Shown here: positions 9,507-37,876 of the stretch, in pieces
How positions within the stretch are numbered: the first letter of the stretch is position 1
How the letters are laid out: the number at the start of each line of letters is the position of its first letter
Source: an uncultured Alphaproteobacteria bacterium
GTDB lineage: Bacteria; Pseudomonadota; Alphaproteobacteria; JAJFIK01
Assembly: GCA_964531285.1 (NCBI GenBank)
Contig: CAZHDI010000010.1
Span: 1-59,702 of the forward strand
Length of the DNA: 59,702 nucleotides
Direction of reading: 5' to 3'
Program-made: the position numbers and the translations under genes
Notes under the pieces: model-generated
Databases searched by the model: none
Seen by the model: only the letters and a program-made list of their open reading frames with translations
What the model was told of the DNA's origin: nothing

Positions 9507-9583
9507 AGGAGACTAGGGCGTGGAGCAGGCGTGGGCACTCCTGGACCATACGATCCAGGAGCCATAAATATGGCGGCCGTTGA

Positions 9584-11476: not shown

Positions 11477-11632
11477 TGCATCCTCCTACGATCAGACTTG
11501 AGACCTGATCATGTCATCATATGACTGATTAACATCGCCTCTCGCGTGCCGGTACAAATTTCGAGACTTCTGCCAAATTAACCGATGGGAAAGCGTAATC
11601 CGGCAAGGTGGGCCGTGCCGATAGGAGGGCAG

Positions 11633-13220: not shown

Positions 13221-15704
13221 ATGTCGGGACCTGCACTTTCGCACCAGCCCATGCCGTCAATGATGCCCGGCGATCTCGCCGGACAAATCGCATATACACT
13301 GAAATATGTTCTGTGTATCAATGACGCTGAGATCAGCTTAGGCGACCTCTATGTCGCCTTGGCGCTGAGTGTCCGGAATACCCTTGTTGACGGCCTTGCC
13401 CAGAGCCGGTTGCGCGACCGCAGTCAGGGATGCAAGAAAGTCCATTATCTGTCGATGGAGTTCTTGGTCGGCAAGTGTACGGAGAATAATCTACTCAATC
13501 TGGGTCTCTACGGTGAAGCGGAAACGGCCATCGGTTCTTATGGCTATGCCCTTCCCGATGTCTTGCACATGGAGCATGATCCGGCGCTAGGGAATGGCGG
13601 TCTCGGGCGCCTGGCGGCCTGCTTCCTCGACTCGATGGCGACGCTGGATATCGCCGGGTTTGGTTATGGAATCAACTATGACTATGGCCTGTTCCGGCAG
13701 TCCATATCGAACGGGTATCAGAAGGAGTCGCCGGATGCTTGGCGATCCGATGGGGCGCCCTGGCTTATTGAGCAGCACCACAAGACCAAGATCGTGCCGA
13801 TTTTTGGGAATGTTCTGTCTACGACAGACGGGAATGGTGCCTATAATCCGAGTTGGATGAACTGGCAGACGATTTTGGGTGTGCCATATGATATGCCAAT
13901 CGTCAGCGGAAACGGCACACGGACGAATTTTCTTCGGCTATACTCGGCAAAGGCTTCGGACGAATTCGACATCAAAGTCTTCAATGACGGCGATTATTTC
14001 AAGGCCATAGAGAATAAGATTGACTCGGAGCGGATCTCCAAAATTCTCTATCCTGAGGATAGTCGGGAGGAGGGCAAGGAGCTGCGCCTTCTTCAGGAAT
14101 ACTTCTTTGTTGCATGCGCCATTCGCGACATTGTGGACGACCATCGCCAGCAGGATGGCACGCTGGAGACATTCGCACGTTATAACGCCATTCAGCTCAA
14201 CGACACCCATCCCGCCTTGGCCATTGCAGAGCTCATGCGGCTTATGGTTGACGAACATCGTCTGCCCTGGGAACTCGCCTGGGAGCAAACCCAAGCGGCT
14301 TGTTCCTACACAAACCATACGCTGCTTCCTGAAGCCCTTGAACGGTGGTCCGAACCGCTTCTTGCGCGGGTTCTGCCGCGCCATAATCAGATCATTCGGG
14401 AGATCGACCGGCGCTTTGTTGACGCCATGCTGGCCCGAGGCATCGACCGGGCGGCTATCGATAAAATGTGCATCATCAAAGATAGTAACGATGGCAGCAC
14501 GTCCGAGATCCATATGGCGAATCTGTCGATTATCGGCAGCCATGCGACCAATGGCGTTGCAGCGCTCCATACGGATCTCATCAAGTCGGACCTCGTGCCT
14601 GAGTTCTATCGCGTCTGGCCGGAGCGATTTCAGAACAAGACCAATGGCGTGACGCCGCGCCGCTGGTTGAAGCAAGCCAACCCGCGCCTGGCGGCGCTTA
14701 TCACCGACGCGATTGGGCCCGGATGGATGGACGACCTTTCGGCGCTCCGCGGGCTCGAAGTATTTGCTACGGACAGTCCGTTTCAGGAGAAGTTTCGTGT
14801 CGTGAAGGATAGCGCGAAGCGGGACTTGGCGGCGCTGATCTATACGACAACCCGGATTCGCGTCGATCCCGACACCATCTTCGATATTCAGGTGAAGCGC
14901 ATCCATGAGTATAAGCGGCAGCTGCTCAATGTGCTCCAGATCATCGATACCTATCTTGAGATCAGCGACGGGGGAGCCGTACCGCGAACGCCGGCAACCT
15001 ATGTCTTCTCGGGTAAGGCGGCGCCGGGCTACTTTATGGCCAAGCGCATTATCAAGCTGATCAACGCTGTCGCGACCGTGGTCAATCAAGATCCGACAGT
15101 TTCGCAGCATTTGAAGGTGGCCTATGTGCCCGACTATCGGGTTTCGGTTGCTGAGCGGATCTTTCCGGCGGCAAATCTCAGTGAGCAGATCTCCACCGCC
15201 GGTTTCGAAGCGTCGGGGACCGGCAACATGAAGTTCATGATGAACGGTGCTCTTACGATCGGTACGATGGATGGCGCAAATGTGGAGATTTGCGAAGAGG
15301 CGGGTTCGGAGAATATCTACATCTTCGGTAAATCTGTAGATGAGATCGCCGCCCTCAAAACCGGCGGCTACAATCCGTGGGACTTCTATCATAACAATCC
15401 GCGGATCCAGCGTGTTCTCGATGCCCTCAATAGCGATTTGTTTGCACCGGGAGAGCCGGGTCTGTTCGAGCCGATCTACTATAGCCTGTTGAGCGGCGGC
15501 GATTACTTCTGTTTGCTGGCCGATTTTCAGGATTACGTGGATTGCAAGACCCGCGTCTTGGAGGATTTCCAGGATCAGCAGGACTGGACACGAAAGGCGA
15601 TCCTGAACATCGCCCGATCGGGGAAGTTTTCCTCCGATCGGACGATTGCGGAATATGCGCGGGACATCTGGGGGATTGATCCTTCCAATGCCGGGGCGGC
15701 TTAG
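13221..15704 (+). CDS. glgP: glycogen/maltodextrin phosphorylase (GT35)
   Basis: 827 aa. EASGTGNMKFMMNGALTIGTMDGANVE pyridoxal-phosphate lysine motif, with phosphorylase-like sequence over the full length. Confidence 0.95.
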   Translation: MSGPALSHQPMPSMMPGDLAGQIAYTLKYVLCINDAEISLGDLYVALALSVRNTLVDGLAQSRLRDRSQGCKKVHYLSMEFLVGKCTENNLLNLGLYGEAETAIGSYGYALPDVLHMEHDPALGNGGLGRLAACFLDSMATLDIAGFGYGINYDYGLFRQSISNGYQKESPDAWRSDGAPWLIEQHHKTKIVPIFGNVLSTTDGNGAYNPSWMNWQTILGVPYDMPIVSGNGTRTNFLRLYSAKASDEFDIKVFNDGDYFKAIENKIDSERISKILYPEDSREEGKELRLLQEYFFVACAIRDIVDDHRQQDGTLETFARYNAIQLNDTHPALAIAELMRLMVDEHRLPWELAWEQTQAACSYTNHTLLPEALERWSEPLLARVLPRHNQIIREIDRRFVDAMLARGIDRAAIDKMCIIKDSNDGSTSEIHMANLSIIGSHATNGVAALHTDLIKSDLVPEFYRVWPERFQNKTNGVTPRRWLKQANPRLAALITDAIGPGWMDDLSALRGLEVFATDSPFQEKFRVVKDSAKRDLAALIYTTTRIRVDPDTIFDIQVKRIHEYKRQLLNVLQIIDTYLEISDGGAVPRTPATYVFSGKAAPGYFMAKRIIKLINAVATVVNQDPTVSQHLKVAYVPDYRVSVAERIFPAANLSEQISTAGFEASGTGNMKFMMNGALTIGTMDGANVEICEEAGSENIYIFGKSVDEIAALKTGGYNPWDFYHNNPRIQRVLDALNSDLFAPGEPGLFEPIYYSLLSGGDYFCLLADFQDYVDCKTRVLEDFQDQQDWTRKAILNIARSGKFSSDRTIAEYARDIWGIDPSNAGAA

Positions 15705-15721: not shown

Positions 15722-16684
15722 ATGCGGTTCAAGGCTTTCGATAGGCGGTGCGGAGGGCGAGGCCTTTCGCATGCCGCCATTGGTGTGATCGCCATTGCGT
15801 GTACCGCGTGTGCGTCGCCCCGTCATGACGGCGAGTCGTCTCTGGTCGCCCAGGGGATCCTGTCATCATTCGATGTTCCGCTTAAAGATTTGAGAGAGCG
15901 GCCCGAAGGAGGTGTTATGCGGCGCCTTCTGCACGGCTTTAGTGGCAGTTTGTCTGCCGGCATGCCGCTGGATCTGTCACAGGCAGAAACCACAGAAGGT
16001 GAGGGGCAGCGGGCGCGTGTCGGTAACACGCCGACCCTCAAGGCGACGGTGAAGTACAACCCTGTGAGTGCGTGGTTCGCGACGGGTACGGCCTATATCT
16101 ATCTTGATCGTGATCTTCAGGAGGAGTGGAATCCCGACTTCTCTTATGTCTTCGGGTATGACGATTGGCGCCCTTATACGTTCAGCTTGGTTTATTCGAA
16201 CTATGGCGGCAATCGCTTCAGCCCTGATCGGGCTCAAGGGGCGGAGGTGACCGAGTTCGATGAGGGTACGGTTTCACTGGGATGGAAGTTTCCCATTCCG
16301 GACCGGCTGGCAAAGCCCTTCGTTGTGGCATCAGATGGCGGTATCGGTTGCATCATCGGTTATAACGTCAGTCCACGGTATTTTGACTTGAGATCGTCGG
16401 AGAACCGGTCGTGGAAACAGGCTGCCTCGCTCGGCTGCAAATACATCATCACGGGGAATTGGTATCTCAACTGGACGGCGTTCTATTATCCCAAAGAGTA
16501 TCAACAACAGCCCTGGGACCCGGATTATACCTACGGATTTGGCTACTTCGACTGGCGGCCGGGAACGATTAGTCTTCAGTATAACAATTATTCGGGTAAC
16601 CGTTTTCCAGGGCGGCAGCGCGGTGACGAGACTGGGCGGTTCATCGATGGTGAATTGTCAGTTTCTTGGAGCTGGAGTTTCTGA
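15722..16684 (+). CDS. hypothetical outer-membrane beta-barrel protein with internal duplication
   Basis: Signal or possible lipobox (AIACTAC). Alternating aromatic/Gly-rich strands. Two homologous ~55-aa blocks (W[ND]PD[FY][ST]Y.FGY.DWRP...S[LV].Y[SN]NY[GS]GNRF). C-terminal Phe. The stop lies 2 nt before the next gene. Confidence 0.6.
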   Translation: MRFKAFDRRCGGRGLSHAAIGVIAIACTACASPRHDGESSLVAQGILSSFDVPLKDLRERPEGGVMRRLLHGFSGSLSAGMPLDLSQAETTEGEGQRARVGNTPTLKATVKYNPVSAWFATGTAYIYLDRDLQEEWNPDFSYVFGYDDWRPYTFSLVYSNYGGNRFSPDRAQGAEVTEFDEGTVSLGWKFPIPDRLAKPFVVASDGGIGCIIGYNVSPRYFDLRSSENRSWKQAASLGCKYIITGNWYLNWTAFYYPKEYQQQPWDPDYTYGFGYFDWRPGTISLQYNNYSGNRFPGRQRGDETGRFIDGELSVSWSWSF

Positions 16685-16686
16685 TC

Positions 16687-17934
16687 ATGACGACCGCATT
16701 CTCCTCCATGCTCATCGGACGGCGGAAAAACCTCCTGATCGTTGATGATAGCCAAAGCTTCCGCTTTGTTTTGAAAAAACTGCTGTCCCGCCTCGGTTTC
16801 ACGGTGTTTGAGGCCGGCGACGGCCAGGCCGCGCTTGATATTCTTGCATCCGAGGACATCCCTGTCGTGATCTGCGATTGGGAAATGCCGGGCATGGATG
16901 GTATCGAATTCTGCAGAACGGTGCGGCGTGCCTATCCGGATGACTATAAATATATCCTGATGCTGACGTCCCATGATGAAAGTACGGCCATTGAAGTCCT
17001 TTTCGATGCCGGAGCAGACGATTATATCACCAAGCCACCGGCGATGACGGCTCTGCGTGCCCGTCTTCTGGGCGCCCTGAGGATCGTTTCGCGCTATGAC
17101 GATCTGCGATGGTTCAATAGGGAGCTTCAGGAAAAGAAGGACGCCATCGATAAGTCCTTCGCCAGTATCCGGGACGATCTGCTGGTCGCTGAAACGATCC
17201 AACGTCAATATCTGCCGAATGACTTCGACCCTATTGGTGCGGTTCGCTTCGCCGGGGAATTTTTGCCCGCGTTCCATACGTCAGGCGATATCTTCAATTA
17301 CGTCCCGATCAACGAGACGCAGATTTGTCTGTTTTCGGCCGATGTATCCGGGCATGGCGTGGCGTCGGCCCTCCTTGCCATCACAATCGGTCAAACACTG
17401 TGCTTCGATGGAGATGCGTCGGATGCCACCTTTGTGGTGGATCGGGCCGGCAAGCGCAGAGCGCGTGATCCGGCAGAGGTCGTTGATTGGCTCAATCAAC
17501 GTTTCGCCAATGGCCAGACGGATCATTATTTTACGATAACCTATTGTGTTTTGGACTTGGAAACCTCTGCCCTGCGATATTGTCAGGCAGGGCATTGCCC
17601 GATCATTCGGGTGAATGCGGCCGGTGAGGCATCATTGATCGGGGCCGGGGGGCTGCCGGTTGGAATGCTACCAACCGCCCGATATGAGACCTGTACGATC
17701 GATCTTGAACCTGGTGACCGGATCTATCTCTACTCGGATGGTATCTCGGAAGCCGAGAACGAAACAGATGATATGTACGGACCTGAGTCTATGATGGCAT
17801 CCTTGTCCCAATCGCGGACGGCGTCGCTTGAAGGATCGATCGAACGGCTCTTGCAAGCGGTACAGAGCTGGCAGGCCGCACAGTCTTTCCTTGATGACGT
17901 GTCGATCATCAGTTTCGAATACCAGGCCGCATGA
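16687..17934 (+). CDS. response-regulator receiver fused to PP2C/SpoIIE phosphatase (RsbU-like)
   Basis: REC: LLIVDDSQSF ... VVICDWEMPGMDG ... DDYITKP. PP2C: SGDIFNY ... FSADVSGHGVASAL ... LYSDGISEA. Confidence 0.9.
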   Translation: MTTAFSSMLIGRRKNLLIVDDSQSFRFVLKKLLSRLGFTVFEAGDGQAALDILASEDIPVVICDWEMPGMDGIEFCRTVRRAYPDDYKYILMLTSHDESTAIEVLFDAGADDYITKPPAMTALRARLLGALRIVSRYDDLRWFNRELQEKKDAIDKSFASIRDDLLVAETIQRQYLPNDFDPIGAVRFAGEFLPAFHTSGDIFNYVPINETQICLFSADVSGHGVASALLAITIGQTLCFDGDASDATFVVDRAGKRRARDPAEVVDWLNQRFANGQTDHYFTITYCVLDLETSALRYCQAGHCPIIRVNAAGEASLIGAGGLPVGMLPTARYETCTIDLEPGDRIYLYSDGISEAENETDDMYGPESMMASLSQSRTASLEGSIERLLQAVQSWQAAQSFLDDVSIISFEYQAA

Positions 17935-17960
17935 GCCTGGAAAATGAGGAGATTTGACGA

Positions 17961-18293
17961 ATGCTTATGACCAAGCGGCAGGAAGGCCAGCGTTTGATCC
18001 TGGCTTTGCATGAAAAACGTCTTGATGCGGCCGTTGCGGTCGATTTCAAGGAGCAGGTTGTTCAAGACGTCGACAGCATTGGGACTGATGTCGTCATCGA
18101 TCTTACGGATGTCGAATTCATCGACAGCTCAGGGCTGGGTGCTCTCGTTGCCGTGCTGAAACATGTGAGCGGGAAGGGCCGACTCGTTCTGACGGGGTTG
18201 CGCACGAAGACCGAGCAGATCTTCAAACTGACCCGCATGGACACGGTCTTCGAAATTTATCCGTCCATTGACGAAGCGCTTGAGGCGGCTTGA
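17961..18293 (+). CDS. STAS-domain anti-sigma-factor antagonist (RsbV/SpoIIAA-like)
   Basis: 110 aa. FIDSSGLGALV contains the canonical phosphorylatable Ser. Confidence 0.9.
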   Translation: MLMTKRQEGQRLILALHEKRLDAAVAVDFKEQVVQDVDSIGTDVVIDLTDVEFIDSSGLGALVAVLKHVSGKGRLVLTGLRTKTEQIFKLTRMDTVFEIYPSIDEALEAA

Positions 18294-18314
18294 TCCTTCA
18301 GCAGAGAGAGTGTC

Positions 18315-19505
18315 ATGAAAGCCATGATCCTGTGCGCCGGTCAAGGAACGCGGTTGCGCCCCCTGACTTATGCGGTGCCCAAGCCGATGGTACCCCTCGT
18401 CGACCGGCCCGTGCTGCAGTACATCGTAGAGCACTTGCGCGATCAAGGTGTCGACGATCTCGCGATAAATCTGAGTTATCTGCCGGAGGCGATTCAAAAC
18501 TACTTCCGGGATGGGTCGGCTTATGGCGTGGACGTGACATACTCCTATGAGGGACGGCTCGTCGATGGCGAGTTTAAGGGCGCGGCCATCGGGTCGGCCG
18601 GAGGGCTGCGAAAGGTTCAGGACGAGCTTGATTTCTTTGATGACACGTTTCTGGTGCTCTGCGGCGATGCGGTTATCGATCTCGATATTCGCGCGGCTGT
18701 CCGGCAACACAAAGAGCGCCGGGCCTTAGCGACGATCGTGCTCGCGGATGTGCCGCAGCATGCCGTCTCGAAATACGGGATTGTCGATATGGCCAGTGAC
18801 GGCCGTATATCGGCGTTTCAGGAGAAGCCGGAGATTGCCGAGGCCGTCAGTACGCTGGCAAATACCGGTATTTACATCTTCGAGCCGGAAATCTTCGACC
18901 ATATCCCGACCGGACAAACCATGGACTTGGGCGGGGATCTGTTTCCAAAGCTTACCGAGGGCGGACATGCGATCTATGGCGGGGTCGCCCCCCTTACTTG
19001 GCTCGATATCGGAACCCTTCAAGACTACGCCGCCGCTTCTTTTCGTCTGTTGACTGACCGGTCGGCCGGTATTGATATTCCGGGGCGTGTCGTCGATGAT
19101 CGTTTGCGCACGGGGCCACATGTCACCATGGATCGGAAGGCGGTTACGCTTGAGGGACCGATCTATTTAGGCGGTGGGACGGTTATCGAGGCCGGGGCCC
19201 GCATTATCGGACCGGCGGTCATCGGGCAGAATTGCCGCATCAGCGCGAATGCCGTCGTGCACCAGTCGGTCTTGGGCGATCATGTTCATGCCCGGTCCGG
19301 TGCGATGATCTCGAATGCGGTCATTTCCGGTGGATACTTCATCAATGAAGCCGGTGAATTCATTCATCTGCGCAAATCGGGACCTGTCGGCGACGTGCGT
19401 GAGCCGGCCGGTTCCGGCGCCGATGATATGGCTAGTGACGTTGTCGGCTCTGCGGACGGCGACAGCGCCGTCATCCGTCGGCCGCGACAAGCAAGCGGCC
19501 ATTAG
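18315..19505 (+). CDS. NDP-sugar pyrophosphorylase (sugar-1-phosphate nucleotidyltransferase with C-terminal left-handed beta-helix)
   Basis: MILCAGQGTRLRPLTYAVPKPMVP nucleotidyltransferase signature. C-terminal hexapeptide-like repeats (IGPAVIGQNCRISANAVV). Confidence 0.85.
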   Translation: MKAMILCAGQGTRLRPLTYAVPKPMVPLVDRPVLQYIVEHLRDQGVDDLAINLSYLPEAIQNYFRDGSAYGVDVTYSYEGRLVDGEFKGAAIGSAGGLRKVQDELDFFDDTFLVLCGDAVIDLDIRAAVRQHKERRALATIVLADVPQHAVSKYGIVDMASDGRISAFQEKPEIAEAVSTLANTGIYIFEPEIFDHIPTGQTMDLGGDLFPKLTEGGHAIYGGVAPLTWLDIGTLQDYAAASFRLLTDRSAGIDIPGRVVDDRLRTGPHVTMDRKAVTLEGPIYLGGGTVIEAGARIIGPAVIGQNCRISANAVVHQSVLGDHVHARSGAMISNAVISGGYFINEAGEFIHLRKSGPVGDVREPAGSGADDMASDVVGSADGDSAVIRRPRQASGH

Positions 19506-19506
19506 G

Positions 19507-19974
19507 ATGATGCCGGCCGGGCCGATCGCACAATACCGGATCGCCAGCACATTTCATGCTGTTCGCACCTTGCTCACTGATCTGGGTGACCGTCTTTCCG
19601 GGCAGGTCGATGAAGCAACACTTGCGCGGCTTGAACTATGCTTGGCCGAAGCGCTGAACAACATAGTCGAGCACGGATATCAGGAAAATCCGAATGGCGA
19701 GATCCTGGTGGATACGGACTGGGACGGCGAGGCGGTGCGGACCCGTATCACGGATTTTGGCCGATCCAGTCAAGACGCAAACGGAGCATATCCGGAACCG
19801 GTCCAGGGGCAGCCGGACGATTTGAAAGAGGGTGGGTATGGACTGTCCCTCATTCATACGATTGCCTCGCGCATTGACTATAACTCCGAGGGCGGCCGGA
19901 ATACAACGACGATCTGGCAATCCATAGGGGCAGTGTACCCCGATACGCAGACGGAACGCTTCCCGCAAGCTTAG
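19507..19974 (+). CDS. GHKL anti-sigma-type serine kinase (RsbW/SpoIIAB-like)
   Basis: N-box EALNNIVEHG and G-box GGYGLSLI. ATG at 19507 lies 1 nt after the upstream TAG. The track ORF (19315) overlaps the previous gene out of frame. Confidence 0.85.
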   Translation: MMPAGPIAQYRIASTFHAVRTLLTDLGDRLSGQVDEATLARLELCLAEALNNIVEHGYQENPNGEILVDTDWDGEAVRTRITDFGRSSQDANGAYPEPVQGQPDDLKEGGYGLSLIHTIASRIDYNSEGGRNTTTIWQSIGAVYPDTQTERFPQA

Positions 19975-20064
19975 CGTTTCAAGCTGTGGGTGTTTGTATC
20001 AAGCCGGCGGTCCGGCATGCCGTTTCGTATATCCCCCAACCGGTTTATGCGTCCGGCTGAACCC

Positions 20065-20408
20065 GATGAACTCTTTCCGCTAATACGCGGCCGGATTGCA
20101 AAGACCCATTTGCGGGACGGCGGCGGCGTCGATGCGGTCAGTACGTGACGGTGACGTCATCGGGACGTCGTGCTGACGGACTGGTCCATGCCGGCTATGG
20201 GCGGTTTTAGGGCAACTGTCCGGATACGCCAATATAAAGCCGAGCACGACTACAGGCCGGCGAAAATCCTTGATCTGAGTGCCAATGCCATAACCGAGTA
20301 ACGGGAAGAAGGTCTTGCGGTTGGAATGGACCGGTATCTGAGCAAGCCTATTGTGAAGGGGGATCTGCTCGCCGCGTCTACGCCGCCCAACATCCATCGT
20401 TCGCTTAA
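20065..20408 (+). pseudogene. decayed response-regulator receiver domain (three in-frame stops)
   Basis: One frame reads ...GVDAVST*R*RHRDVVLTDWSMPAMGGFRATVRIRQY...ILDLSANAITE*REEGLAVGMDRYLSKPIVKGDLL. The REC hallmarks (acceptor D, S/T, K) are kept. The frame is broken by TGA at 20146, TGA at 20152 and TAA at 20299, and the N-terminal DD strand is missing. Confidence 0.6.
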
Positions 20409-20471
20409 CCCTCTATTCTCCGCTGGCGTCTTATCCTTTGAGGGCAGGACATTATCGACCGGCGGGCGAGG

Positions 20472-22313
20472 GTGCGCGTGACGCAGTTTTACTTTGAGGC
20501 CTATGAGGACCGGGTGCCGGACCCACCGGTGCCCTACTCGATGATACGCGAGATGCTTTGGCAGTTTCTCGCGACCCTGAGTCTTGCAGTCGGAGGATGG
20601 TACATCCTGTGGCGGTGGACCGAGTCGCTCAATATGGACGCACTTTGGTTTGCCATTCCGCTCGCGACTGCCGAGACTTGCGCATTTATCGGTCTCATCC
20701 TGTTCTATATCAATCTGTGGTCGACAAGAGATCCGGAGCGTCAGCCTGCGCCCTATCTGAAAAGCGAATGCGGTATCGCCAACAGTGCGCCGGATGAGCC
20801 GATCTCGGTCGATATCTTTTTTACGAGCTATGATGAGGATCCCGAACTTGTTCGGTTGAGCCTTCGGGACGCGAAGCGCGTCTATTATCCGCATCCCATC
20901 GATATTCGCATTCATGTCCTGGACGATGGTCGCCGTGAGGCCATGCGGACGGTTGCCGAGGAAGAGCAGGTCGGCTACATCACCCGATCGAACAATGTTG
21001 GGTTCAAGGCTGGAAATCTGCGTAATGGCCTTGAGAAAACATCGGGTGATTTCATCGTGATCTGCGACGCGGACACCCGCCCGTTTCCCACGCTTCTTGA
21101 TCACACCCTGGGGTATTTCAGAGATCCAAATGTCGCTTGGGTTCAAACCCCGCAATGGTTTTTCGACCTTCCTGCAGGCCGTACCCTTGACCGAATCTGG
21201 GAGGATTATGCCGGTCCGCTCGGCCGGGTCGCGGGAAAAGGTATTCAGTCGATCTTTGGGCAGATCACTTTGGGCAAGGATCCTTTCGATAACGATCCCA
21301 AGATGTTTTATGATGTGATCCAGCGCCGCAGGAATGCGCATAACGCCTCATTCTGTTGCGGGGCAGGGTCGATCCATCGCCGGGAAGCCGTGATGGATGC
21401 CGCTTTGAAGGCCTATGCTAACCAAATCGGCCGGTCGGTCGACACGGTGGCCCAAACGGTGGACGATCCGGACCTGCGCCGGGCTCTGCGCAGCGAAATG
21501 GTTCGGGCTCATGTTCGCGACACGGAGTTTACCCCCTACAAGTTTCACGTTTCCGAGGATATCTACACGTCAATTGTGCTCCACGGTGACAAGGATCGGC
21601 GCTGGAAGTCCGTTTTTCATCCAGATGTCGAAACCAAGATGCTCTCGCCGCAGGACCTGCAAGCCTGGACCGTACAGCGCTTCAAATATGCCGGCGGCTC
21701 CCTCGACATCGCTCTTCATGACAACCCGATCCTGACATCCGATATGACGGTCGGCCAGAAACTCATGTATGCCGCGACGTTCTGGTCTTATCTGTCGGGG
21801 CTTTGGAACATCGTGTTTTTATCCGCACCGATCATTTATTTGTTTACCGGTATCGCTCCGGTGGAGGCCTATTCCCACGACTTTTTTGTCCGCATTATTG
21901 CCTTTCTGATTCTGAATGAACTGGCCATGATGGTCGGCACTTGGGGCGTGGAAAACTATCGCGGCAAAGCATATTATCTGGCGTTCTTCCCCCTCAACCT
22001 TCGCGCGCTCTGGACCGTTCTGCGCAGCCAAAAGATCAAGTTCCCGACGACGCCTAAGGAGCGTCAGGACGGGACCTTCCTTTTTCTTGTCCGCCCCCAG
22101 CTGGCTGTCATGATCCTGACGGCCATTGCGATCGTCTACGGCTTCTTCTCATGGCTACAATCGGGGTCCTATAGCGATCTGAGCGCCTATATCGCGAATG
22201 TATTCTGGGGACTGAACAACATTCTTTCATTGGGCGTGATCGTGACAGCCGCACTTTGGAAGCCGCCGACTGAGAAGCCCGAGTTCGCGCCTCTGGCGCT
22301 GAAAGAGGTTTGA
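20472..22313 (+). CDS. processive family-2 glycosyltransferase, cellulose-synthase (BcsA)-like, no PilZ domain
   Basis: TM helices flank a GT-A domain: FFTSYDEDP, VLDDG, ICDADT, QTPQWF, FCCGAGSIHRR, SEDIYTS (the TED equivalent), QRFKYAGG (the QxxRW equivalent), FPTTPKE. GTG start. Ends right after the last TM helix. Confidence 0.9.
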   Translation: MRVTQFYFEAYEDRVPDPPVPYSMIREMLWQFLATLSLAVGGWYILWRWTESLNMDALWFAIPLATAETCAFIGLILFYINLWSTRDPERQPAPYLKSECGIANSAPDEPISVDIFFTSYDEDPELVRLSLRDAKRVYYPHPIDIRIHVLDDGRREAMRTVAEEEQVGYITRSNNVGFKAGNLRNGLEKTSGDFIVICDADTRPFPTLLDHTLGYFRDPNVAWVQTPQWFFDLPAGRTLDRIWEDYAGPLGRVAGKGIQSIFGQITLGKDPFDNDPKMFYDVIQRRRNAHNASFCCGAGSIHRREAVMDAALKAYANQIGRSVDTVAQTVDDPDLRRALRSEMVRAHVRDTEFTPYKFHVSEDIYTSIVLHGDKDRRWKSVFHPDVETKMLSPQDLQAWTVQRFKYAGGSLDIALHDNPILTSDMTVGQKLMYAATFWSYLSGLWNIVFLSAPIIYLFTGIAPVEAYSHDFFVRIIAFLILNELAMMVGTWGVENYRGKAYYLAFFPLNLRALWTVLRSQKIKFPTTPKERQDGTFLFLVRPQLAVMILTAIAIVYGFFSWLQSGSYSDLSAYIANVFWGLNNILSLGVIVTAALWKPPTEKPEFAPLALKEV

Positions 22314-22315
22314 CA

Positions 22316-23644
22316 ATGACATTCACCAAAGGCGTTATGCGTGCCCGCAGTCACATCGTCTTTCTGGTCGGTCTGTGTGCGGCCTTCACACTGATTGTCC
22401 ATCTCGATGCTCTTGGTGCCCGGCAGCGTCCGATCTCGATTGATGTCTTCGAGATTGCTACATCGGAGCAGTCGGCTCCGGCGAAGCCGGTCGGTGCACT
22501 GACCGCTCAGGAAGAAGCGGCTGCGCAAACAGCATGGGTTTACTTCGAGAATAACCTCCAACCGGAGACAGGATTGGTAAACTCCGTTGACGGATATCCG
22601 TCGACGACCATGTGGGACCAGGCCTCCTACATGCTCGCGCTGATTTCGGCGTATCGGCTTGATGTCATCGACTCGAGCATGTTCGACCGGCGAATGACGA
22701 GCCTTTTGACGGCCCTTGCGGCGCTTCCCTTGTTCGACGGCGCGCTCCCGAACAAGGCGTACTCAACCACGTCACTCGCCATGACCGATTATGAAGGTCA
22801 AGTCAGTGAACGGGGCATTGGCTGGTCGGCGCTGGATATCGGACGGATCATGGTGCCGCTCAATATTGTGGTCTGGAATTATCCGCGCTATGCCGGCCTC
22901 GTCAAAGACGTCGTCCAGCACTGGCAGATCGACGCTATGCTGGATGATGGATTTATGATTGGAACACGGACCGATGCGAGTGACAGAACGGAGCGCGTTC
23001 AGGAGGGTCGGATCGGATACGAGGAGTATGCCGCCGCGTCTCTGGGGCTTCTGGGCTATGACGCGAAGCGAGCCGGCAGCTACACGGACTTTCTCCAATT
23101 CGAGCCGATTTACGGTGTCGATGTACCGGTCGATGTGCGCGACGTCAGGAGCTATGGGGCTCATAACTATGTGGTGAGTGAGCCCTACATTCTGGCCGCA
23201 CTGGAATATGGGTGGACATCGGATATGCAGGAATTTGCCTATCGCGTTTATGCGGCGCAGGAACAGCGCTTCCGCCGGACAGGACAACTCACTGCGGTCA
23301 GTGAGGACAATGTCGATCGGCCGCCGTATTTTGTCTACAACACGGTTTTTGCGAATGGGCGGCGCTGGAACACGATCTCCGAGGACGGAGAAGATGTGAG
23401 CGACTTACGCTCTGTTAGCACTAAGGCAGCATTCGGTTGGTACGTTCTTTATCCTAATGACTATACCACCCGGCTCGTCGAAAAGGTCATTGCGCTGTCC
23501 GATCCGGAGAAGGGCTTCTATTCCGGGTGGTATGAAGTGCTCGATGAACCGAACACGGCCATCACGGCCAACACCAATGGAATCATTCTGCAAAGCTTGC
23601 ACTTCAAGAAGTTCGGCAAGCTCGTTCAGCTTTATACGGACTAA
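22316..23644 (+). CDS. periplasmic (alpha/alpha)6-glycosidase-like / DUF3131-like protein, paralogue 1
   Basis: Signal anchor. AWVYFENN...TGLVNSVDGYPSTTMWDQASY ... LPNKAY ... QEGRIGYEEYAA ... AHNYVVSEPY ... PPYFVYNTVF. ATG lies 2 nt after the GT2 stop, with RBS GAAAGAGG. Confidence 0.75.
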   Translation: MTFTKGVMRARSHIVFLVGLCAAFTLIVHLDALGARQRPISIDVFEIATSEQSAPAKPVGALTAQEEAAAQTAWVYFENNLQPETGLVNSVDGYPSTTMWDQASYMLALISAYRLDVIDSSMFDRRMTSLLTALAALPLFDGALPNKAYSTTSLAMTDYEGQVSERGIGWSALDIGRIMVPLNIVVWNYPRYAGLVKDVVQHWQIDAMLDDGFMIGTRTDASDRTERVQEGRIGYEEYAAASLGLLGYDAKRAGSYTDFLQFEPIYGVDVPVDVRDVRSYGAHNYVVSEPYILAALEYGWTSDMQEFAYRVYAAQEQRFRRTGQLTAVSEDNVDRPPYFVYNTVFANGRRWNTISEDGEDVSDLRSVSTKAAFGWYVLYPNDYTTRLVEKVIALSDPEKGFYSGWYEVLDEPNTAITANTNGIILQSLHFKKFGKLVQLYTD

Positions 23645-23656
23645 AGGATAGCGCGG

Positions 23657-25153
23657 ATGCGGGGCAGTCTGAAACAGGCGGCGAACGCTTTGTCTTGTAC
23701 ACGCCGCATTGGTGCGCTTGGTGCGCTCGCTCTGCTCATTGCCTGTACCGGACCCGATGCGTGGTTACTTGACGAAAGTGATGACCTCATACCGCACGCG
23801 GCTGACCTGAGACGGGATGGCTTCGGTCCGCGACGGTCTTATCCAACGCGGCGGGGGCCGTTGACCGAGCGCGAGATGGACATGGCTCGGATCGCCTGGA
23901 CCTATTTCGAGAATAACATGCAGGAGGCAACGGGCCTCGTAAACGCCGTGAATGATTATCCGTCTACAACTCTTTGGGATACAGCATCCTATCTTGGCGG
24001 CATGGTGGCGGCCTACGAATTGGGCATCATCGATCGAAACGAGTTTTCACGGCGTCTTGTGAAGATACTCGGTACACTGAACAGTATGGACTTCTTCCGA
24101 GGGGAGCTTCCCAATAAGGTCTACAATACCCAAACGGCCGAGAAGGTGAATTACGCCAATCAACCGGGCGAGATCGGGTTCTCGGCGCTCGATCTTGGCC
24201 GGCTGCTGATTTGGCTCGAGATCATCAAGAACCGCTATCCGGAACGGGCCAATGCGATCGATACCTTTGTCCTGCGCTGGAATTTCTGTAACGTCGTCGA
24301 TAATCGCGGCATGATGTACGGCGCCATCGTCGGCCCTGATAATGAGACACAGTATGTCCAGGAAGGCCGGCTCGGTTATGAAGAGTATGCGGCGAAGGGA
24401 TTTCAGCTTTGGGACATCGATACCGATCTTGCCTCCCGTCCGGAACCCTACAGCATTCTGACGACGTATGGCGTCAAAGTCCCCTATGATTCGCGGGATC
24501 CACGCACGTTGGATGCGCATAACTATGTGGTGTCGGAAAGTTATGTGCTGGACGGTATTGAGCTGAACTGGGATCACGCAGACGACACGACGTCCAGCGA
24601 CCGGCATCACAGCGATCGTATCGCCGAGAAGTTCGGCAATCTCATCTATGAAGCCCAGGTTGCCAGATACCGGGCGACAGGCATCTTAACGGCGCGTACC
24701 GAGCATCAACTCGCCGAGCCGCCCTACTTCGTTTATGATACGATCTATACGGACGGCTATGCGTGGAACACTATCACCGAAGACGGAAAGCATGTCCCGC
24801 AATTCGCTGCGATAGCGCTAAAGGGGGCCCTTGGGATGTGGGCGGTTTGGGAGACGGAGTACACGGACCTCCTGTTCGATACGATTGCCGATCTTTATCA
24901 TCCTGAGAAGGGATTCTACGAGGGCATCTTTGAAAATGGCAGTGGGGTGATCGAGACATATACGTCCAATAATAACGGTATCATGCTCGAGGCGCTTCTT
25001 TATAAGGCGCAGGGGAAGCTTTTACGTCCGTCAACGGAGAAGACAATCTGGGATCAGACGATGCGGGACAACTTCCTGTGGGACCGGCACAATGGTAAAG
25101 CCAAGTGCTATCCGCGCAAGAGGTTGGAGGGCACGAATGAGCCGGAGAATTAA
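23657..25153 (+). CDS. DUF3131-like lipoprotein, paralogue 2
   Basis: Lipobox LLIAC. AWTYFENN...TGLVNAVNDYPSTTLWDTASY ... QEGRLGYEEYAA ... AHNYVVSESY ... PPYFVYDTIY. Confidence 0.75.
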   Translation: MRGSLKQAANALSCTRRIGALGALALLIACTGPDAWLLDESDDLIPHAADLRRDGFGPRRSYPTRRGPLTEREMDMARIAWTYFENNMQEATGLVNAVNDYPSTTLWDTASYLGGMVAAYELGIIDRNEFSRRLVKILGTLNSMDFFRGELPNKVYNTQTAEKVNYANQPGEIGFSALDLGRLLIWLEIIKNRYPERANAIDTFVLRWNFCNVVDNRGMMYGAIVGPDNETQYVQEGRLGYEEYAAKGFQLWDIDTDLASRPEPYSILTTYGVKVPYDSRDPRTLDAHNYVVSESYVLDGIELNWDHADDTTSSDRHHSDRIAEKFGNLIYEAQVARYRATGILTARTEHQLAEPPYFVYDTIYTDGYAWNTITEDGKHVPQFAAIALKGALGMWAVWETEYTDLLFDTIADLYHPEKGFYEGIFENGSGVIETYTSNNNGIMLEALLYKAQGKLLRPSTEKTIWDQTMRDNFLWDRHNGKAKCYPRKRLEGTNEPEN

Positions 25154-26546
25154 AGTACTCTGGCTGGTTGTTGTCCTGTCAATGGGTGTGTCGTTGACCG
25201 GATGCGGTGTTGCCTATCGCGGACTGGAGACAGCAGCCACGAGCCTTGCGCAGTCGTCGCTCTGGTATGTTGGCCGCCGAGGACCGCTGTCGGAGAAGGA
25301 ACTGTCCTGGGCTCGAACGGCCTGGACATATTTCGAGAACAATTACCATCCGCAAACCGGGCTCGTCAATGGCGCCGACCGCTACCCGGTCGTCAGTATG
25401 TGGCATGTCGGCGATTATCTCGCCGCGCTCCATAGCGCCCGCCAACTTGGTATCATTGAAGAGCGGATATACGATCAGCGTTTGAGTGCTGTCCTGGCCC
25501 GTCTCTCCGGACTGCCGCTGGCCTTCGGCGAATTGCCGAACACGCTCTACAATGCGCAAAGCGGAGTGATGGTGAACTATGCCAATCAACCGGAGGAAAT
25601 CGGTTGGGCGATTATCGATATTGGCAGGGTCCTCATATGGCTGAGTATCGTGAAAGCGGATGTTCCTCATTTCGCGGAGTATATCGACAGGATTGTCTTG
25701 CGATGGTCGTTCTGCAAGGCCCTTGACGATGAGGGGCGTCTTCAAAGCGCCGTAAAGATCAATGACCGCCTACAGACGATCCCTGAGACAACCATCGGAT
25801 ATACCGATTACGCACAAACGGGCTTCAGGCTCTGGGGACTTTCGACGGTGCCCCGCTTGATGTCAGACCCGGATAACCGCGTCGATATTTTTGGTATCTC
25901 CTTTCCGCTCGACAGTGATTGGGCCCGCCAGTCCGGTACCTACGGGGCGCTGGTATCGGCGCCGTTTCTTTATGCGGGCCTTGAGACACATTGGGATTTT
26001 CCGGTGGCGTTGGGAGCGGCCGATGCTCAGAGTGCCTTCTTTCGTGATCTTGCCAACCGGGTCTATGATGTTCAGGAAAGCAGGTTCGAGCTTGAAGGTA
26101 TCTCAACAGCACGAACCGACCATCAACTCAGCCGTCCGCCATTCTATGTGCAGGATTCCATTTTCGGGGCCGGTTATCCGTGGTCGACATTATCCGATAA
26201 CGGGGAGAACAGACCAGACCTCGCCCTTGTGTCGACACGGGCCGTATTCGGCATGTGGGCACTGTGGAATACATCCTATACCGATCATCTCATGCGGCTG
26301 ATTGAGCCGCTTTTCGATCCGCAACGCGGTTGGTTCGAGGGTCGATACGAGAACAGCGCGGGGTATGAACCCATGATCACCTTATCGACCAATACAATGG
26401 TGCTCCAGGCGCTTGCCTTTAAACAGAACGGTCGCCTGTTTCAGCCGGTTCGCAAGAAGAGCCTCATCGGTCATGTCCTATCCGATGCATTCCGGGTTAC
26501 CGGACAGTGTCTTGCGAATCGTCGGGAGGATGACGACGATGCGTAA
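25137..26546 (+). CDS. DUF3131-like lipoprotein, paralogue 3 (most divergent)
   Basis: Lipobox SLTGC. AWTYFENN...TGLVNGADRYPVVSMWHVGDY. Conserved acidic blocks are altered (PETTIGYTDYAQ, LVSAPF). The start overlaps the paralogue 2 stop by 17 nt. Confidence 0.75.
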   Translation: MSRRIKVLWLVVVLSMGVSLTGCGVAYRGLETAATSLAQSSLWYVGRRGPLSEKELSWARTAWTYFENNYHPQTGLVNGADRYPVVSMWHVGDYLAALHSARQLGIIEERIYDQRLSAVLARLSGLPLAFGELPNTLYNAQSGVMVNYANQPEEIGWAIIDIGRVLIWLSIVKADVPHFAEYIDRIVLRWSFCKALDDEGRLQSAVKINDRLQTIPETTIGYTDYAQTGFRLWGLSTVPRLMSDPDNRVDIFGISFPLDSDWARQSGTYGALVSAPFLYAGLETHWDFPVALGAADAQSAFFRDLANRVYDVQESRFELEGISTARTDHQLSRPPFYVQDSIFGAGYPWSTLSDNGENRPDLALVSTRAVFGMWALWNTSYTDHLMRLIEPLFDPQRGWFEGRYENSAGYEPMITLSTNTMVLQALAFKQNGRLFQPVRKKSLIGHVLSDAFRVTGQCLANRREDDDDA

Positions 26547-28578
26547 TGGCGTACTGATTGTCCTGACCTGGCTTTTCGTTTCGATGCCATGGTCCGGTTC
26601 GCTGTCTTGGGCGCGGACGGACGCTTATCTCGATGTCTTGCGTCAGGGGGTGGTGCTGTCACAAGTCGGCCGGTGGGAGCAGGCCGCTGATCATTGGGCA
26701 AAGGGCCGGACCGCGCTCGATGCGACGGAAGGAATGTCGGATCAGGATCTGGCGCTGCTTGGCATTCTCCAGGCAATGGCTCTTGAGAAGACAGGCAATG
26801 CTCAGGCCTACGAGGTCTGGACGGATGCCCTGGCGGCCTTTCTGAAAGCGGGAACGCGATGGGAGGATTTTCGCGCCACGCTGGCAGGTCACTTGCGCGG
26901 AATGCAAATTTCGCGCGGATCCACCTTCTCGACTGAGGGCGTCATTACCGCCGATCAGAAGCCCGGTGACTTAATCCTTTCAAGCTTGGATTCCCTTCTT
27001 CAGTTCACGACTTATGACGGGCCAGCCCCGGGGCTTCAGCCGGTTCAACATCGCGTGGAAGAGCCTCTGACGGTTGCCCGATCGTATTTTCCGAGACCAC
27101 CCGCTATCTTGGCTGAGGACAATTCCACGGGCCCCAGGGGGCGGACCATCAGCGCTCCACAGGCTGGCGAGGGCGAGCGGTCGTCATCGAGAGTGATGCG
27201 CGGCGTACCCGAGATAGGGCCGGATGAGCTGAGTTCTGATCCAACGCAAAATCAATCGAAAACGGACGAATTTTCAGCAGGGTCGGGGGCACTCAATGGC
27301 GAGAGCGCCTTCAGTATGCGTTTCCCACCGGCGAGAAGCGGGGCCGAGGGTCCATCCGGGATGCTTTCGGGACCGACGCTAAGCCGTCGCCTCGATCGTC
27401 GTTCAGCCGGTGCTTTGAGCGAGGCTGATCGGGACGCCGCACGCCGGGCCTGGCGGTATATCGTAATGAACCGTCAGTCGAACACGGGGCTCGTGAACTC
27501 GGTTCAGACGTATCCCTATACGACCATGTGGGATCTGGGCAGCAGCATTGCGGCGATCGTCAGTGCTTTCCGGATTGGGATCATTGATGAGTGGGTGGTC
27601 GAAGACTATCTCGATAGAATGCTCCGCACATTAAGCGACATACCGCTTTATGACGGTGTCCTTCCGAACAGGGAATACGATACGCGTTCGGCGATGATGA
27701 CCGACCTGCGCAATCGGCAATCGTCCGTCGGCAGCGGGTATTCGTCCATCGATGTGGCGAGGCTATTGGTCTGGCTGGCTGTCATCAAGGAGCATTTTGA
27801 CACTTTTGCCGAACGGGTTGAGTCCATCGTGAGCCGATGGGATCTGACGCGCGTACATGACGGCGACGAATTTTACCGGGAGCTTCTCACGGCGGAAGGC
27901 ATCGACCGCAAGCAGGAAGGCCGGATGGGATATGAGCAGTATACGGCTCTTGCGTTTGCCCATTGGGGGATCGTTGTCCCTGGTGCGCATGACACTATGG
28001 AGTCGCGAACCGTGCGCCTCCACGATATTCCGATTCTCAAGGATACCCGGACGCCGAACCACCTCAATCTGGAACCGTTCCTGCTGGCCTTGATGGAGTT
28101 CGAAACACGGATGCCCGTGGTCGAAACACAGGCGGCGCGTCTGCTTGCGGCGCATGTAAAGCGGTACGAAGATACCGGCATTCTGTCCCTGTATACGGAG
28201 GATTCCATCGATCAAGCGCCGTGGTTTCTGTACAACACGGTCCTCGCAGATGCAGGGCCCTGGCGCTGCTTGACCTCCGCCGGGAAAGAGGCCGACCGGT
28301 GTCAAAGGCTGTCGACAAAGGCGGCGTTTGCGGCAGAGGCAGTCTTCGATTTGGACTACACGCGCATCGCCCGGCAACAGGTCATCGAGGGTGTGGATAT
28401 GCGCCGGGGCTATTATGCGGGCATCTATGAAGACGGAACGATGAACCGTGTTTTGACGGTCAATACCAATGCCATCATTCTCGAAGCGCTCGCTTTCAAA
28501 GCAGGTGGATCGAGGGCGTTCCTCGCCAATGCGTATGCGGATCCTGGCACAGCGACGGGCAGCCGTGCAGCGCGCTGA
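26539..28578 (+). CDS. DUF3131-like protein, paralogue 4, with N-terminal helical (TPR-like) region and low-complexity linker
   Basis: Signal peptide (SGSLSWA), ~130 aa helical region, ~150 aa Pro/Ser/Gly-rich linker. Then AWRYIVMN...TGLVNSVQTYPYTTMWDLGSS ... QEGRMGYEQYTA ... APWFLYNTVL. ATG overlaps the previous stop (ATGCGTAA). Confidence 0.75.
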   Translation: MRNGVLIVLTWLFVSMPWSGSLSWARTDAYLDVLRQGVVLSQVGRWEQAADHWAKGRTALDATEGMSDQDLALLGILQAMALEKTGNAQAYEVWTDALAAFLKAGTRWEDFRATLAGHLRGMQISRGSTFSTEGVITADQKPGDLILSSLDSLLQFTTYDGPAPGLQPVQHRVEEPLTVARSYFPRPPAILAEDNSTGPRGRTISAPQAGEGERSSSRVMRGVPEIGPDELSSDPTQNQSKTDEFSAGSGALNGESAFSMRFPPARSGAEGPSGMLSGPTLSRRLDRRSAGALSEADRDAARRAWRYIVMNRQSNTGLVNSVQTYPYTTMWDLGSSIAAIVSAFRIGIIDEWVVEDYLDRMLRTLSDIPLYDGVLPNREYDTRSAMMTDLRNRQSSVGSGYSSIDVARLLVWLAVIKEHFDTFAERVESIVSRWDLTRVHDGDEFYRELLTAEGIDRKQEGRMGYEQYTALAFAHWGIVVPGAHDTMESRTVRLHDIPILKDTRTPNHLNLEPFLLALMEFETRMPVVETQAARLLAAHVKRYEDTGILSLYTEDSIDQAPWFLYNTVLADAGPWRCLTSAGKEADRCQRLSTKAAFAAEAVFDLDYTRIARQQVIEGVDMRRGYYAGIYEDGTMNRVLTVNTNAIILEALAFKAGGSRAFLANAYADPGTATGSRAAR

Positions 28579-29143
28579 TTCAGCGGCCGAGTACTGCCTT
28601 GTGTTCGGCGGTCAGTCGCTTGATATGAGAGGTCGGAGACCATCATCGGATATCGAAGAACTGATTGGCAAAAGAGTATGTACGGCATACGGATAATAAT
28701 GCGCCGCTGCCATCGCGGCTTGCTGTCAGATCGAGGCTTTCGTCGGCCGACATGACCCTGATACTGCGCAGGGCGGATCCGGCACGAGTATATGGTCCGC
28801 CTATGGTCGATCAGATCCCCCGGGTCAAGCCTCCCAGGTCGAGACCCGCGGGCCATGGCTTCGAGCGATGATCCAGCGGCTGTCATCAGCACCGGGCGAA
28901 CCGGCATTGTGCCAAGAACCGTTCGGGCGCCGCAACGAGCGATATGACGGGCAAGGGACGAAACACAATCCCCGATGGCGCGATTGGTTAGCAATTAATT
29001 CCATCATGAGGGCTTCAAGGCGTTCAATCGCGACTGCGCGCGGTTGGCCCGCTGGCGGATTTCTGCAATTCTCCCGGTTAGAGGCGATGGGGGCATGTTG
29101 AGGCATGGTCGCCGCGCCAGACAAACAGCGAAGGGGAGTGGCT

Positions 29144-37700: not shown

Positions 37701-37876
37701 GGCGTTCTCCCTGAGCTGCGGCTCGATGGCCGGCACTCGTTTGCTTGTTTATGCCTGTCAGCTTAGCGGCGATGGAGCGCGCCGGTCCACACGTCCGTCG
37801 GACGGGTCGTCTTTGGCCCGCCGTGGTGCGCATGATACGGTCCCGCCGCGCGAGCGCACAGGCGGGGCTCTGATCC

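Follow-up and report, generated by a model that had tools for sequence, protein, structure and literature searches.

The window analysed here is the whole 59,702-nt stretch of contig CAZHDI010000010.1 (assembly GCA_964531285.1), and the element in question is a block of plus-strand genes at 15722-28578. On balance, and with slightly better than even confidence, we read this block as a self-contained synthase-dependent system for an envelope beta-glucan, held under post-translational control by a partner switch. A sequence-only reading had proposed that a partner-switching module without a sigma factor is wired to a BcsA-like synthase without a PilZ domain and to four tandem glycosidase-like paralogues, and each part of that interpretation that could be checked was supported. 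To it can be added the SypE/SypA and HenR precedents for the switch, the deletion of a sensor kinase from the locus, and the presence in relatives of genes of glycoside hydrolase (GH) families GH9 and GH10, which complicates a beta-1,2 reading of the product. The genes and their main family matches are as follows (ORF, open reading frame).

11585-13114, plus strand: glycogen/starch-synthase-like gene of glycosyltransferase family 5 (GT5; PF08323, E 2e-49)
13221-15704, plus strand: alpha-glucan (glycogen/maltodextrin) phosphorylase (PF00343, 1023 bits; TIGR02093, 1096 bits)
15722-16684, plus strand: predicted exported outer-membrane beta-barrel of about 12 strands (AlphaFold and Foldseek; no Pfam model)
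16687-17934, plus strand: REC domain plus PP2C/SpoIIE serine phosphatase, RsbU/HenR-like (PF00072, E 2e-26; PF07228, E 1e-40)
17961-18293, plus strand: single-domain STAS protein of the anti-sigma-antagonist type (PF01740, E 5e-17; TIGR00377, E 4e-18)
18315-19505, plus strand: UDP-glucose pyrophosphorylase of the non-GalU (CugP-like) type (PF00483, E 3e-52, plus LbH)
19507-19974, plus strand: RsbW/SpoIIAB-like GHKL serine kinase (HATPase_c_2; PF13581, E 2e-23)
20080-20397, plus strand: REC pseudogene remnant (PF00072, E 6e-11 on the translation with its stops removed)
20478-22313, plus strand: BcsA-like processive synthase of glycosyltransferase family 2 (GT2), no PilZ (PF00535, PF13641, PF13632)
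22316-23644, plus strand: DUF3131 protein D1, N-terminal membrane anchor and periplasmic barrel (PF11329, E 3e-146)
23657-25153, plus strand: DUF3131 protein D2, predicted lipoprotein with lipobox LIAC (PF11329, E 6e-124)
25137-26546, plus strand: DUF3131 protein D3, predicted lipoprotein with lipobox LTGC (PF11329, E 4e-102)
26539-28578, plus strand: DUF3131 protein D4, signal peptide, extension of about 300 residues and barrel (PF11329, E 9e-102, at residues 342-697 of the long ORF)

All elements named in the sequence-only reading were recovered on the plus strand, with the positions and junctions that it gave. Its description of one same-strand string with very short junctions held for gene order and strand: the ORF reading shows an unbroken plus-strand series from 11.6 to 28.6 kb, and the junctions from the barrel gene to D4 are, in order, +2, +26, +21, +1, +503, +2, +12, -17 and -8 nt. 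It did not hold for the 503 nt between the kinase and GT2 genes, the sole long junction within the string, nor for the start, which lies upstream of 15722. There the GT5-like gene is followed after 106 nt by the phosphorylase gene, and the latter after 17 nt by the barrel gene. The eleven genes other than the REC remnant are full-length intact ORFs that keep their catalytic motifs, with tight or overlapping junctions. Ten long minus-strand ORFs gave no Pfam match, so that no minus-strand gene is hidden there, and an Rfam search of the entire window returned neither a riboswitch nor any other RNA family. Counts from a promoter and terminator scan were not above those of shuffled sequence and thus say nothing firm on operon structure.

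The arrangement recurs far beyond this genome, as the suggested check of gene neighbourhoods showed. Counting one genome per species, the synthase was found in at least 574 genomes, the nearest being that of a Parvularculaceae metagenome-assembled genome (74% identity). We searched 80 loci with the proteins of the window and counted components in the 48 whose flanks reach 8 kb or more on either side. The STAS gene was present in 48 of 48, PP2C in 46, DUF3131 in 43, the barrel in 33 and the pyrophosphorylase in 22, with a DUF4301 gene in the pyrophosphorylase slot in 5; the kinase was detected in 38. The set formed by GT2, a varying number of DUF3131 copies and the STAS, PP2C and kinase genes is conserved in Proteobacteria, Acidobacteriota, Ignavibacteria, Bacteroidota and Calditrichaceae, and since the same genes surround the synthase across several phyla, the arrangement is not due to chance. 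The called-gene tables of a close relative, of Nitrospirillum and of Desulfoluna contain the same parts. Other carriers are Pantoea stewartii DC283, where the RefSeq annotation of the locus is wholly generic, Salmonella plasmids and Aliivibrio fischeri; a DNA search with the Pantoea synthase gene found nothing in the complete genomes of E. coli. 

Several fused genes support a physical coupling of the kinase with the synthase and of DUF3131 with the barrel. One protein (P0101) carries a kinase domain N-terminal to the synthase, and two metagenomic proteins (P0387 and P0418) combine one or two DUF3131 domains with the barrel. In two Acidobacteriota loci (L007 and L034) a single ORF encodes DUF4301, REC and PP2C. 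Hidden kinase-synthase fusions in the loci where no kinase was detected were considered and rejected, because the long extensions at the N-terminus of those synthases are not kinase domains but arise by reading through high-GC DNA out of frame.

Individual loci differ in detail. On plasmid pDSJ10 of P. stewartii DC283 (L084, 4672-23292), a globin gene and a gene for an 890-residue 'response regulator' lie downstream of the DUF3131 genes, and the PP2C and kinase genes are separated by an IS66 insertion. In A. fischeri (L085, 11139-15584) the barrel gene is followed by a gene for a 1481-residue protein with no Pfam match, and roughly 9 kb from there is another DUF3131 gene. The filamentous sheath-formers Thiothrix, Leucothrix, Cocleimonas, Thiolinea and Sphaerotilus carry the locus strikingly often (L006, L008, L009, L015, L020-L026, L050, L054, L055 and others), and a link to the sheath polysaccharide is possible.

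The GT2 product had been described as a BcsA-like synthase without PilZ, and both halves of the description proved correct. It aligns with BcsA structures (E 1e-33) across the transmembrane and catalytic regions, including those of TED and QxxRW, and all six of its PDB matches are BcsA structures (E 1e-33 to 2e-28). It carries the motifs DDG and DAD, SED in the place of TED, and QRFKY in the place of QxxRW, the last of these being invariant throughout a synthase family that is about 60% identical across phyla. The best NCBIfam model is TIGR03030 (BcsA), with 211.7 bits against a cut-off of 699.1, and PRK11498 scores 169.8 bits against a cut-off of 992. There is no PF07238 match to indicate PilZ in the synthase; the BcsA alignment ends ahead of the PilZ region, and the final transmembrane helix reaches to residue 593 of the 611, which leaves a tail of 18 residues. 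Pfam searches of the block genes gave no match to the BcsB, BcsC or GH8 families, no OpgH model is among the six NCBIfam matches of the synthase, and the MdoG family is absent from the block.

The regulatory genes were assigned by Pfam and NCBIfam matches and by their motifs, in line with the earlier assignment as REC-PP2C, STAS and GHKL kinase. Direct reading of the sequences showed that the REC-PP2C protein retains the receiver aspartate and the metal-binding motifs SGDIF, DVSGHG, SDG and DDVS, that the STAS protein has a phosphorylatable serine within FIDSSGLG, and that the kinase has an N-box (EALNNIVEHG) and the G-boxes DFG and GGYGL. The trio of PP2C phosphatase, STAS protein with phosphorylatable serine and GHKL serine kinase is thus complete and of the RsbU/RsbV/RsbW type. 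That the block is free of a sigma-factor gene was also confirmed: between 11.5 and 29.3 kb no sigma-factor domain was found in the plus-strand genes or in the ten long minus-strand ORFs, while the related loci were not scanned for one. A direct action of the switch on the synthase is inferred from gene linkage and from the fusions.

The relic of a receiver gene noticed upstream of the synthase is indeed a remnant, with in-frame stops at 20146, 20152 and 20299, and its nature can be refined. It is most similar to the REC domains in ORFs of about 450-1200 residues that flank the synthase in relatives. Three of these ORFs were scanned and all encode hybrid kinases of the order PAS-HisKA-HATPase-REC-Hpt; in several alphaproteobacteria such large ORFs sit between the kinase and synthase genes. 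Since intact hybrid kinases occupy the same place in relatives, the remnant represents the 3' stump of a hybrid sensor kinase that was deleted here, and any input to the switch must therefore come from an unlinked kinase. In the closest relative a GH2 gene lies where the remnant lies here.

The guess that the four exported paralogues are DUF3131 proteins was verified by profile searches, in which all four matched PF11329 (E 3e-146 to 9e-102). The scores of D1 to D4 are 487, 414, 342 and 341 bits against a gathering cut-off of 20.3, and model positions 2-367 are covered. The four proteins are 34-40% identical to each other and share four invariant acidic residues (D174, E230, E297 and E407 in D1 numbering), so that all four may be catalytic; several aromatic residues are invariant too. 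Comparison of a predicted structure with the GH144 fold had been suggested, and it came out in favour of that fold. For D1, an AlphaFold model based on 33 sequences has a pLDDT (predicted local distance difference test) of 92 and consists of a membrane helix at 11-36 followed by an (alpha/alpha)6 barrel. Without exception, its best 19 PDB neighbours in Foldseek (E 3e-10 to 1e-5, template modelling (TM) scores 0.54-0.62) are beta-1,2-glucan enzymes, and they belong to GH144, GH192, GH194, GH162, the cyclic glucan synthase (Cgs) of Agrobacterium and the GH189 domain. GH8 enzymes of the BcsZ type, which also have the (alpha/alpha)6 fold, come far lower in the list (E about 5e-4). Residues described in this clan as references are E239 (general acid), Y367 (subsite -3) and F286 of XcSGL, and the nucleophile E1442 and acid/base E1356 of the GH189 domain of TiCGS.

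At the level of sequence the relationship is much fainter. The sole PDB match from searches with D1 to D4 was a weak local one of D2 to the GH189 domain in 8wy1 (E 0.0017), and a profile built from the four paralogues gave no improvement over the single-sequence searches of the PDB. The DUF3131 profile matched the GH189 domain of TiCGS, the Thermoanaerobacter Cgs, locally (E 3e-4), over the first 90 residues or so only, with the catalytic region outside the alignment. The RefSeq name of the Brucella Cgs (BMEI1837) is DUF3131 protein. Assignment of D1 to D4 to Groups 1 and 3 of Nakajima et al. (2025) was rejected, as the solved representatives gave no sequence match and PgSGL1 and PgSGL2 have no signal peptides; Group 4 was rejected because PgSGL4 has a beta-propeller and a multidomain architecture. 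For Group 2 the structure is available as a prediction only (PMC12102758).

The four copies differ in their localisation signals, which are conserved across three distant taxa. D1 begins with a conserved N-in anchor, MTFxxGxxRARSH. The lipobox of D2 is conserved in two related loci (L001 and L003) and that of D3 in relatives, and D4 has a cleavable signal peptide and an extension made of a conserved helical part and a low-complexity linker. The D1 type is the first gene after GT2 in nearly all loci, and D2 and D3 take the second and third orthogroup positions. The order GT2-D1-D2-D3-(D4) recurs in at least 25 species, and the D4 extension and barrel keep the fourth place in 10 or more further species. 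This fixed order of orthogroups across species indicates that the four copies are ancient and specialised rather than the result of a recent amplification.

The first gene of the block had been taken to encode an outer-membrane protein, and modelling also predicts an outer-membrane barrel. The product has no match in Pfam or NCBIfam; a signal peptide is present, and the last residues are SWSF, the final one aromatic. The AlphaFold model has 12 strands (pLDDT 85), and nearly all of the best 50 Foldseek matches listed are outer-membrane barrels (OmpM1, OmpG, NanC and FapF among them), the exceptions being one designed 12-stranded barrel and one autotransporter. Only 320 clusters of this small family were counted among 1.84 billion representatives. 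The public annotation of the contig gives this gene 255 residues, or 80% of the ORF, from an internal methionine start, so that the signal peptide is lost; homologues have 300-330 residues and signal peptides.

A dedicated sugar-donor pyrophosphorylase had also been proposed. The protein matches a solved 401-residue UTP--glucose-1-phosphate uridylyltransferase (PDB 8x7s, which we take to be CugP itself) with E 1e-108 over residues 1-354, and on this closeness it plausibly supplies UDP-glucose. CugP is the name of the non-GalU type of UDP-glucose pyrophosphorylase (PMC7133116). In the 22 loci that have the gene, it is located between the STAS and kinase genes, and the donor of the synthase is most likely UDP-glucose, as judged from these sequence relationships. 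The alpha-glucan phosphorylase gene is linked to the locus in 10 of the 48, among them Desulfoluna, where it adjoins the STAS gene; since it recurs in distant loci, we count it into the system as the probable source of glucose-1-phosphate. The membership of the GT5-like gene is uncertain: it was not found in the related loci, and the closest relative has a GH77 gene in its place. In other loci (L003, 4331-6001; L007, 12782-15916; L034, 3284-5860) a cytoplasmic DUF4301 protein (PF14134) is encoded between the kinase gene and the GH2, GH9 or GT2 genes, roughly at the pyrophosphorylase slot of other loci. This protein could stand in as a precursor enzyme, or the switch could act on it.

Taken as one system, the parts suggest the following scheme. 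The phosphorylase would free glucose-1-phosphate from stored alpha-glucan and the CugP-like enzyme would convert it into UDP-glucose, a coupling suggested by the families to which the two enzymes belong. The GT2 protein, by homology to BcsA, would join the glucose units and thread the chain through the inner membrane. Beyond it, the four (alpha/alpha)6 proteins would cut or transglycosylate the chain, as their fold and localisation signals suggest, at differing levels within the envelope: D1 beside the synthase with its anchor in the inner membrane, D2 and D3 as lipoproteins, and D4 as a soluble protein with a helical extension. The 12-stranded barrel may then pass the product to or across the outer membrane. 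For control, a phosphorelay would activate REC-PP2C, which would dephosphorylate the STAS protein; unphosphorylated STAS would capture the RsbW-like kinase, or bind the synthase directly, and so relieve an inhibition of GT2, while the kinase would turn the system off by phosphorylating STAS again. The switch would thus take the role that PilZ and cyclic di-GMP (c-di-GMP) have in BcsA, without a sigma factor, as linkage and fusions suggest. We lean towards a processed product, oligomeric or cyclic, similar to osmoregulated periplasmic glucans (OPG) rather than a fibre. Two weak physiological hints come from elsewhere: Shewanella DUF3131 genes group together under salt shock in a published network cluster, and OpgC is part of the Klebsiella version of the locus.

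A number of observations weigh against this scheme. The TM-scores of the barrel are low (0.33-0.40), and the similarity of D1 to the beta-1,2-glucanase fold is modest, with TM about 0.6 and identity of 10-14%; within the clan itself, PgSGL4 has no beta-1,2-glucanase activity. In the 10 of 48 loci where no kinase was detected, either STAS and PP2C must work alone or the search missed the kinase. The fusions rest on metagenomic gene calls, which could contain errors. As to the linkage made, the evidence conflicts: DUF3131 points to beta-1,2, and the kinship of the synthase, which is closer to cellulose synthase than to OpgH, points with the GH9 and GH10 genes to beta-1,4. In 17 of 48 loci the gene immediately upstream of the synthase encodes an exported GH9 protein (E 1e-112 to the endoglucanase 3x17), a GH10 gene lies beside the synthase in Nitrospirillum and Azospirillaceae, and a GH2 gene, whose nearest relative is a beta-mannosidase, occurs in 23 of 48.

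These hydrolases also favour another account, which we consider possible though rather doubtful, namely that the locus is a divergent bcs-type machine for a cellulose-like exopolysaccharide or biofilm matrix with beta-1,4 or mixed linkages. GT2 would then make a long beta-1,4 chain, D1 would serve as a BcsB-like chaperone, the barrel would export the polymer, and the other DUF3131 proteins would be trimmers of the BcsZ type or a scaffold, with a specificity other than beta-1,2. Besides GH9, GH10 and GH2, it can draw on BcsA being the only solved structure matched by the synthase and TIGR03030 its best NCBIfam model, on the (alpha/alpha)6 fold of BcsZ and its place among the D1 matches, and on the frequency of the locus in sheathed filamentous Thiothrix, Leucothrix and Sphaerotilus. 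Yet the block has no BcsB, BcsC or PilZ, the synthase falls far under the cut-offs set for cellulose synthase (212 bits against 699, 170 against 992), and QxxRW is changed to QRFKY family-wide. The D1 model is about six orders of magnitude nearer to the beta-1,2-glucan enzymes than to GH8. The known polysaccharide exporters BcsC, PgaA and AlgE have 16-18 strands, more than the 12 of the present barrel, and GH9, GH10 and GH2 are absent from the window and from most loci.

The control could also be of a more conventional kind, with the anti-sigma switch acting on a sigma factor encoded elsewhere and so on the transcription of this locus or of something else, its proximity to the synthase reflecting co-regulation. 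Modules of this kind classically act on a sigma factor, the models matched by the kinase and STAS are those of RsbW/SpoIIAB and of anti-sigma antagonists, and the 503-nt gap, in which there is a weak terminator-like hairpin (20005-20022), could divide the regulatory and synthase genes into two transcripts, a further point against the scheme proposed above. We nevertheless regard this account as unlikely. The block encodes no sigma factor (a scan not extended to the related loci), the STAS gene accompanies the synthase in every one of the 48 loci across phyla, which is tighter than expected of a general stress switch, and the kinase is found fused to the synthase and REC-PP2C to the DUF4301 protein of the locus; sigma-less switches that act on glycan synthesis are, moreover, already documented. 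Decay of the locus in this genome, to a system that is no longer functional as a regulated one, seems more improbable still. It would be consistent with the three in-frame stops of the REC remnant, with the intact hybrid kinases that relatives hold at that position, and with the GH2 gene found there in the nearest relative (74% identity) and missing here, and on account of the lost sensor kinase the switch may indeed not function normally in this genome. Against it stand the eleven other genes, intact and with conserved motifs and tight or overlapping junctions, and the many related loci that lack a local sensor kinase.

The envelope beta-glucan system that we favour resembles several characterised systems in part, and it does not qualify as bcs or opgGH and probably not as Cgs. 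With bcs it shares a processive membrane GT2 alignable to BcsA, with D, DxD, TED-like and QxxRW-like motifs, a periplasmic partner gene translationally coupled directly downstream of the synthase, periplasmic proteins of an (alpha/alpha)6 glycosidase fold, an outer-membrane barrel, and UDP-glucose as the likely donor. It differs from bcs in lacking the PilZ/c-di-GMP module, BcsB and the tetratricopeptide-repeat protein BcsC, in the acceptor motif QRFKY, and in having DUF3131 partners, a barrel with about 12 strands that belongs to a separate family, and STAS/kinase/PP2C control. The predicted logic is that of OpgH with OpgG and OpgD, where the glucan exported by a membrane GT2 is remodelled in the periplasm by glucanases or transglycosylases; however, the synthase here is not OpgH-like, the (alpha/alpha)6 DUF3131 proteins are not GH186, and OpgGH has no partner switch. 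DUF3131 shares its Pfam family and fold with the cyclising GH189 domain of Cgs, but Cgs is one polypeptide at the cytoplasmic face with GT84, whereas a separate GT2 and four specialised exported DUF3131 copies are found here. The single (alpha/alpha)6 barrel is also that of the SGL clan (GH144, GH162, GH192, GH193 and GH194; PMC12102758), which provides the best structural neighbours of D1, although the DUF3131 proteins have no sequence match to these families at E below 0.01.

For the switch, two precedents were found. SypE/SypA of the Vibrio fischeri syp locus involves a sigma-less STAS protein in a polysaccharide locus, its activity set by serine phosphorylation (PMC8256260). As here, the STAS gene lies inside the polysaccharide locus and a regulator has a receiver domain; unlike here, SypE unites kinase, REC and PP2C in one protein, and syp is an 18-gene locus without a BcsA-like synthase. 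The SypA paper makes no mention of the present locus. In Anabaena, the SpoIIE-like phosphatase and serine kinase of the HenR/All4160/Alr3423 set determine whether a STAS domain is phosphorylated, and this domain in turn has direct control over a glycosyltransferase that an envelope polysaccharide requires (Harada et al. 2026, PMC13555669). In that set the glycosyltransferase carries the STAS domain as a fusion and the genes are scattered, whereas here STAS is separate and all parts are clustered with a BcsA-like synthase. The STAS-fused glycosyltransferase of Anabaena is reportedly not a BcsA-type synthase. Given these precedents, a sigma-less switch on glycan synthesis is not new as a principle.

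The combination had not been recognised as a characterised locus in the sequence-only reading either, and literature searches found no paper characterising the locus, DUF3131 or PF11329. The only published mention of the gene combination that we found is one sentence on an accessory block of Klebsiella, which lists a cellulose synthase, a trio of DUF3131 proteins, OpgC, a hybrid kinase, an anti-sigma factor and an antagonist of that factor. The locus is nevertheless widespread, being conserved in hundreds of bacterial species, coherent and testable.

Synthase-dependent systems for cellulose, alginate, poly-N-acetylglucosamine, Pel and mixed-linkage glucan are the textbook cases of control by c-di-GMP. 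If the reading as an envelope beta-glucan system is right, permanent coupling of a large BcsA-like synthase family to a phosphorylation switch would be another way of gating such synthases, and the 'orphan' sigma-less partner switches, whose outputs are mostly not known, would gain a concrete target. The large DUF3131 family would gain a role, probably as a new family in the beta-1,2-glucan enzyme clan. A new envelope glucan could be revealed in hundreds of species, including P. stewartii, A. fischeri, some Klebsiella pneumoniae and carriers of the Salmonella plasmids, and as these organisms can be handled genetically the hypothesis is directly testable. More tentatively, and as a conjecture that we would not yet expect to hold in full, the locus may stand for an undescribed and widespread class of envelope glucan machine. 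In this class a BcsA-type synthase would be gated allosterically by STAS, kinase and PP2C in place of PilZ and c-di-GMP, with glycogen as carbon source, and four exported GH189-like (alpha/alpha)6 transglycosylases, arrayed from the inner to the outer membrane, would make cyclic or otherwise processed beta-glucans. It would be a 'split' periplasmic counterpart of Cgs and offer another way to osmoregulated glucans or to those of host interaction.

The G+C content of 16001-28000 is 54-58%, against 60-64% over most of the remaining window, a mild shift that would fit horizontal acquisition of the locus. A defence system or mobile element was considered and rejected, since the composition is just slightly AT-shifted and the block contains no mobility genes. 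Downstream, 526 nt (28579-29104) separate D4 from an S9 peptidase gene, and the ORFs of this stretch have no family match. Upstream and divergent, on the minus strand at 6031-11476, lies a type I secretion set made of an RTX/HemolysinCabind protein with DUF4114, an ATP-binding cassette (ABC) exporter and an HlyD-family protein; a similar ABC/AprE-type pair is found near the A. fischeri locus. The region is flanked by two sulfatase genes (3070-4755 and 36210-37736) and a gene for a TauD-family dioxygenase (33020-33985), with one for a sodium:solute symporter (31327-33027); this set suggests the use of sulfated substrates and is unrelated to the locus.

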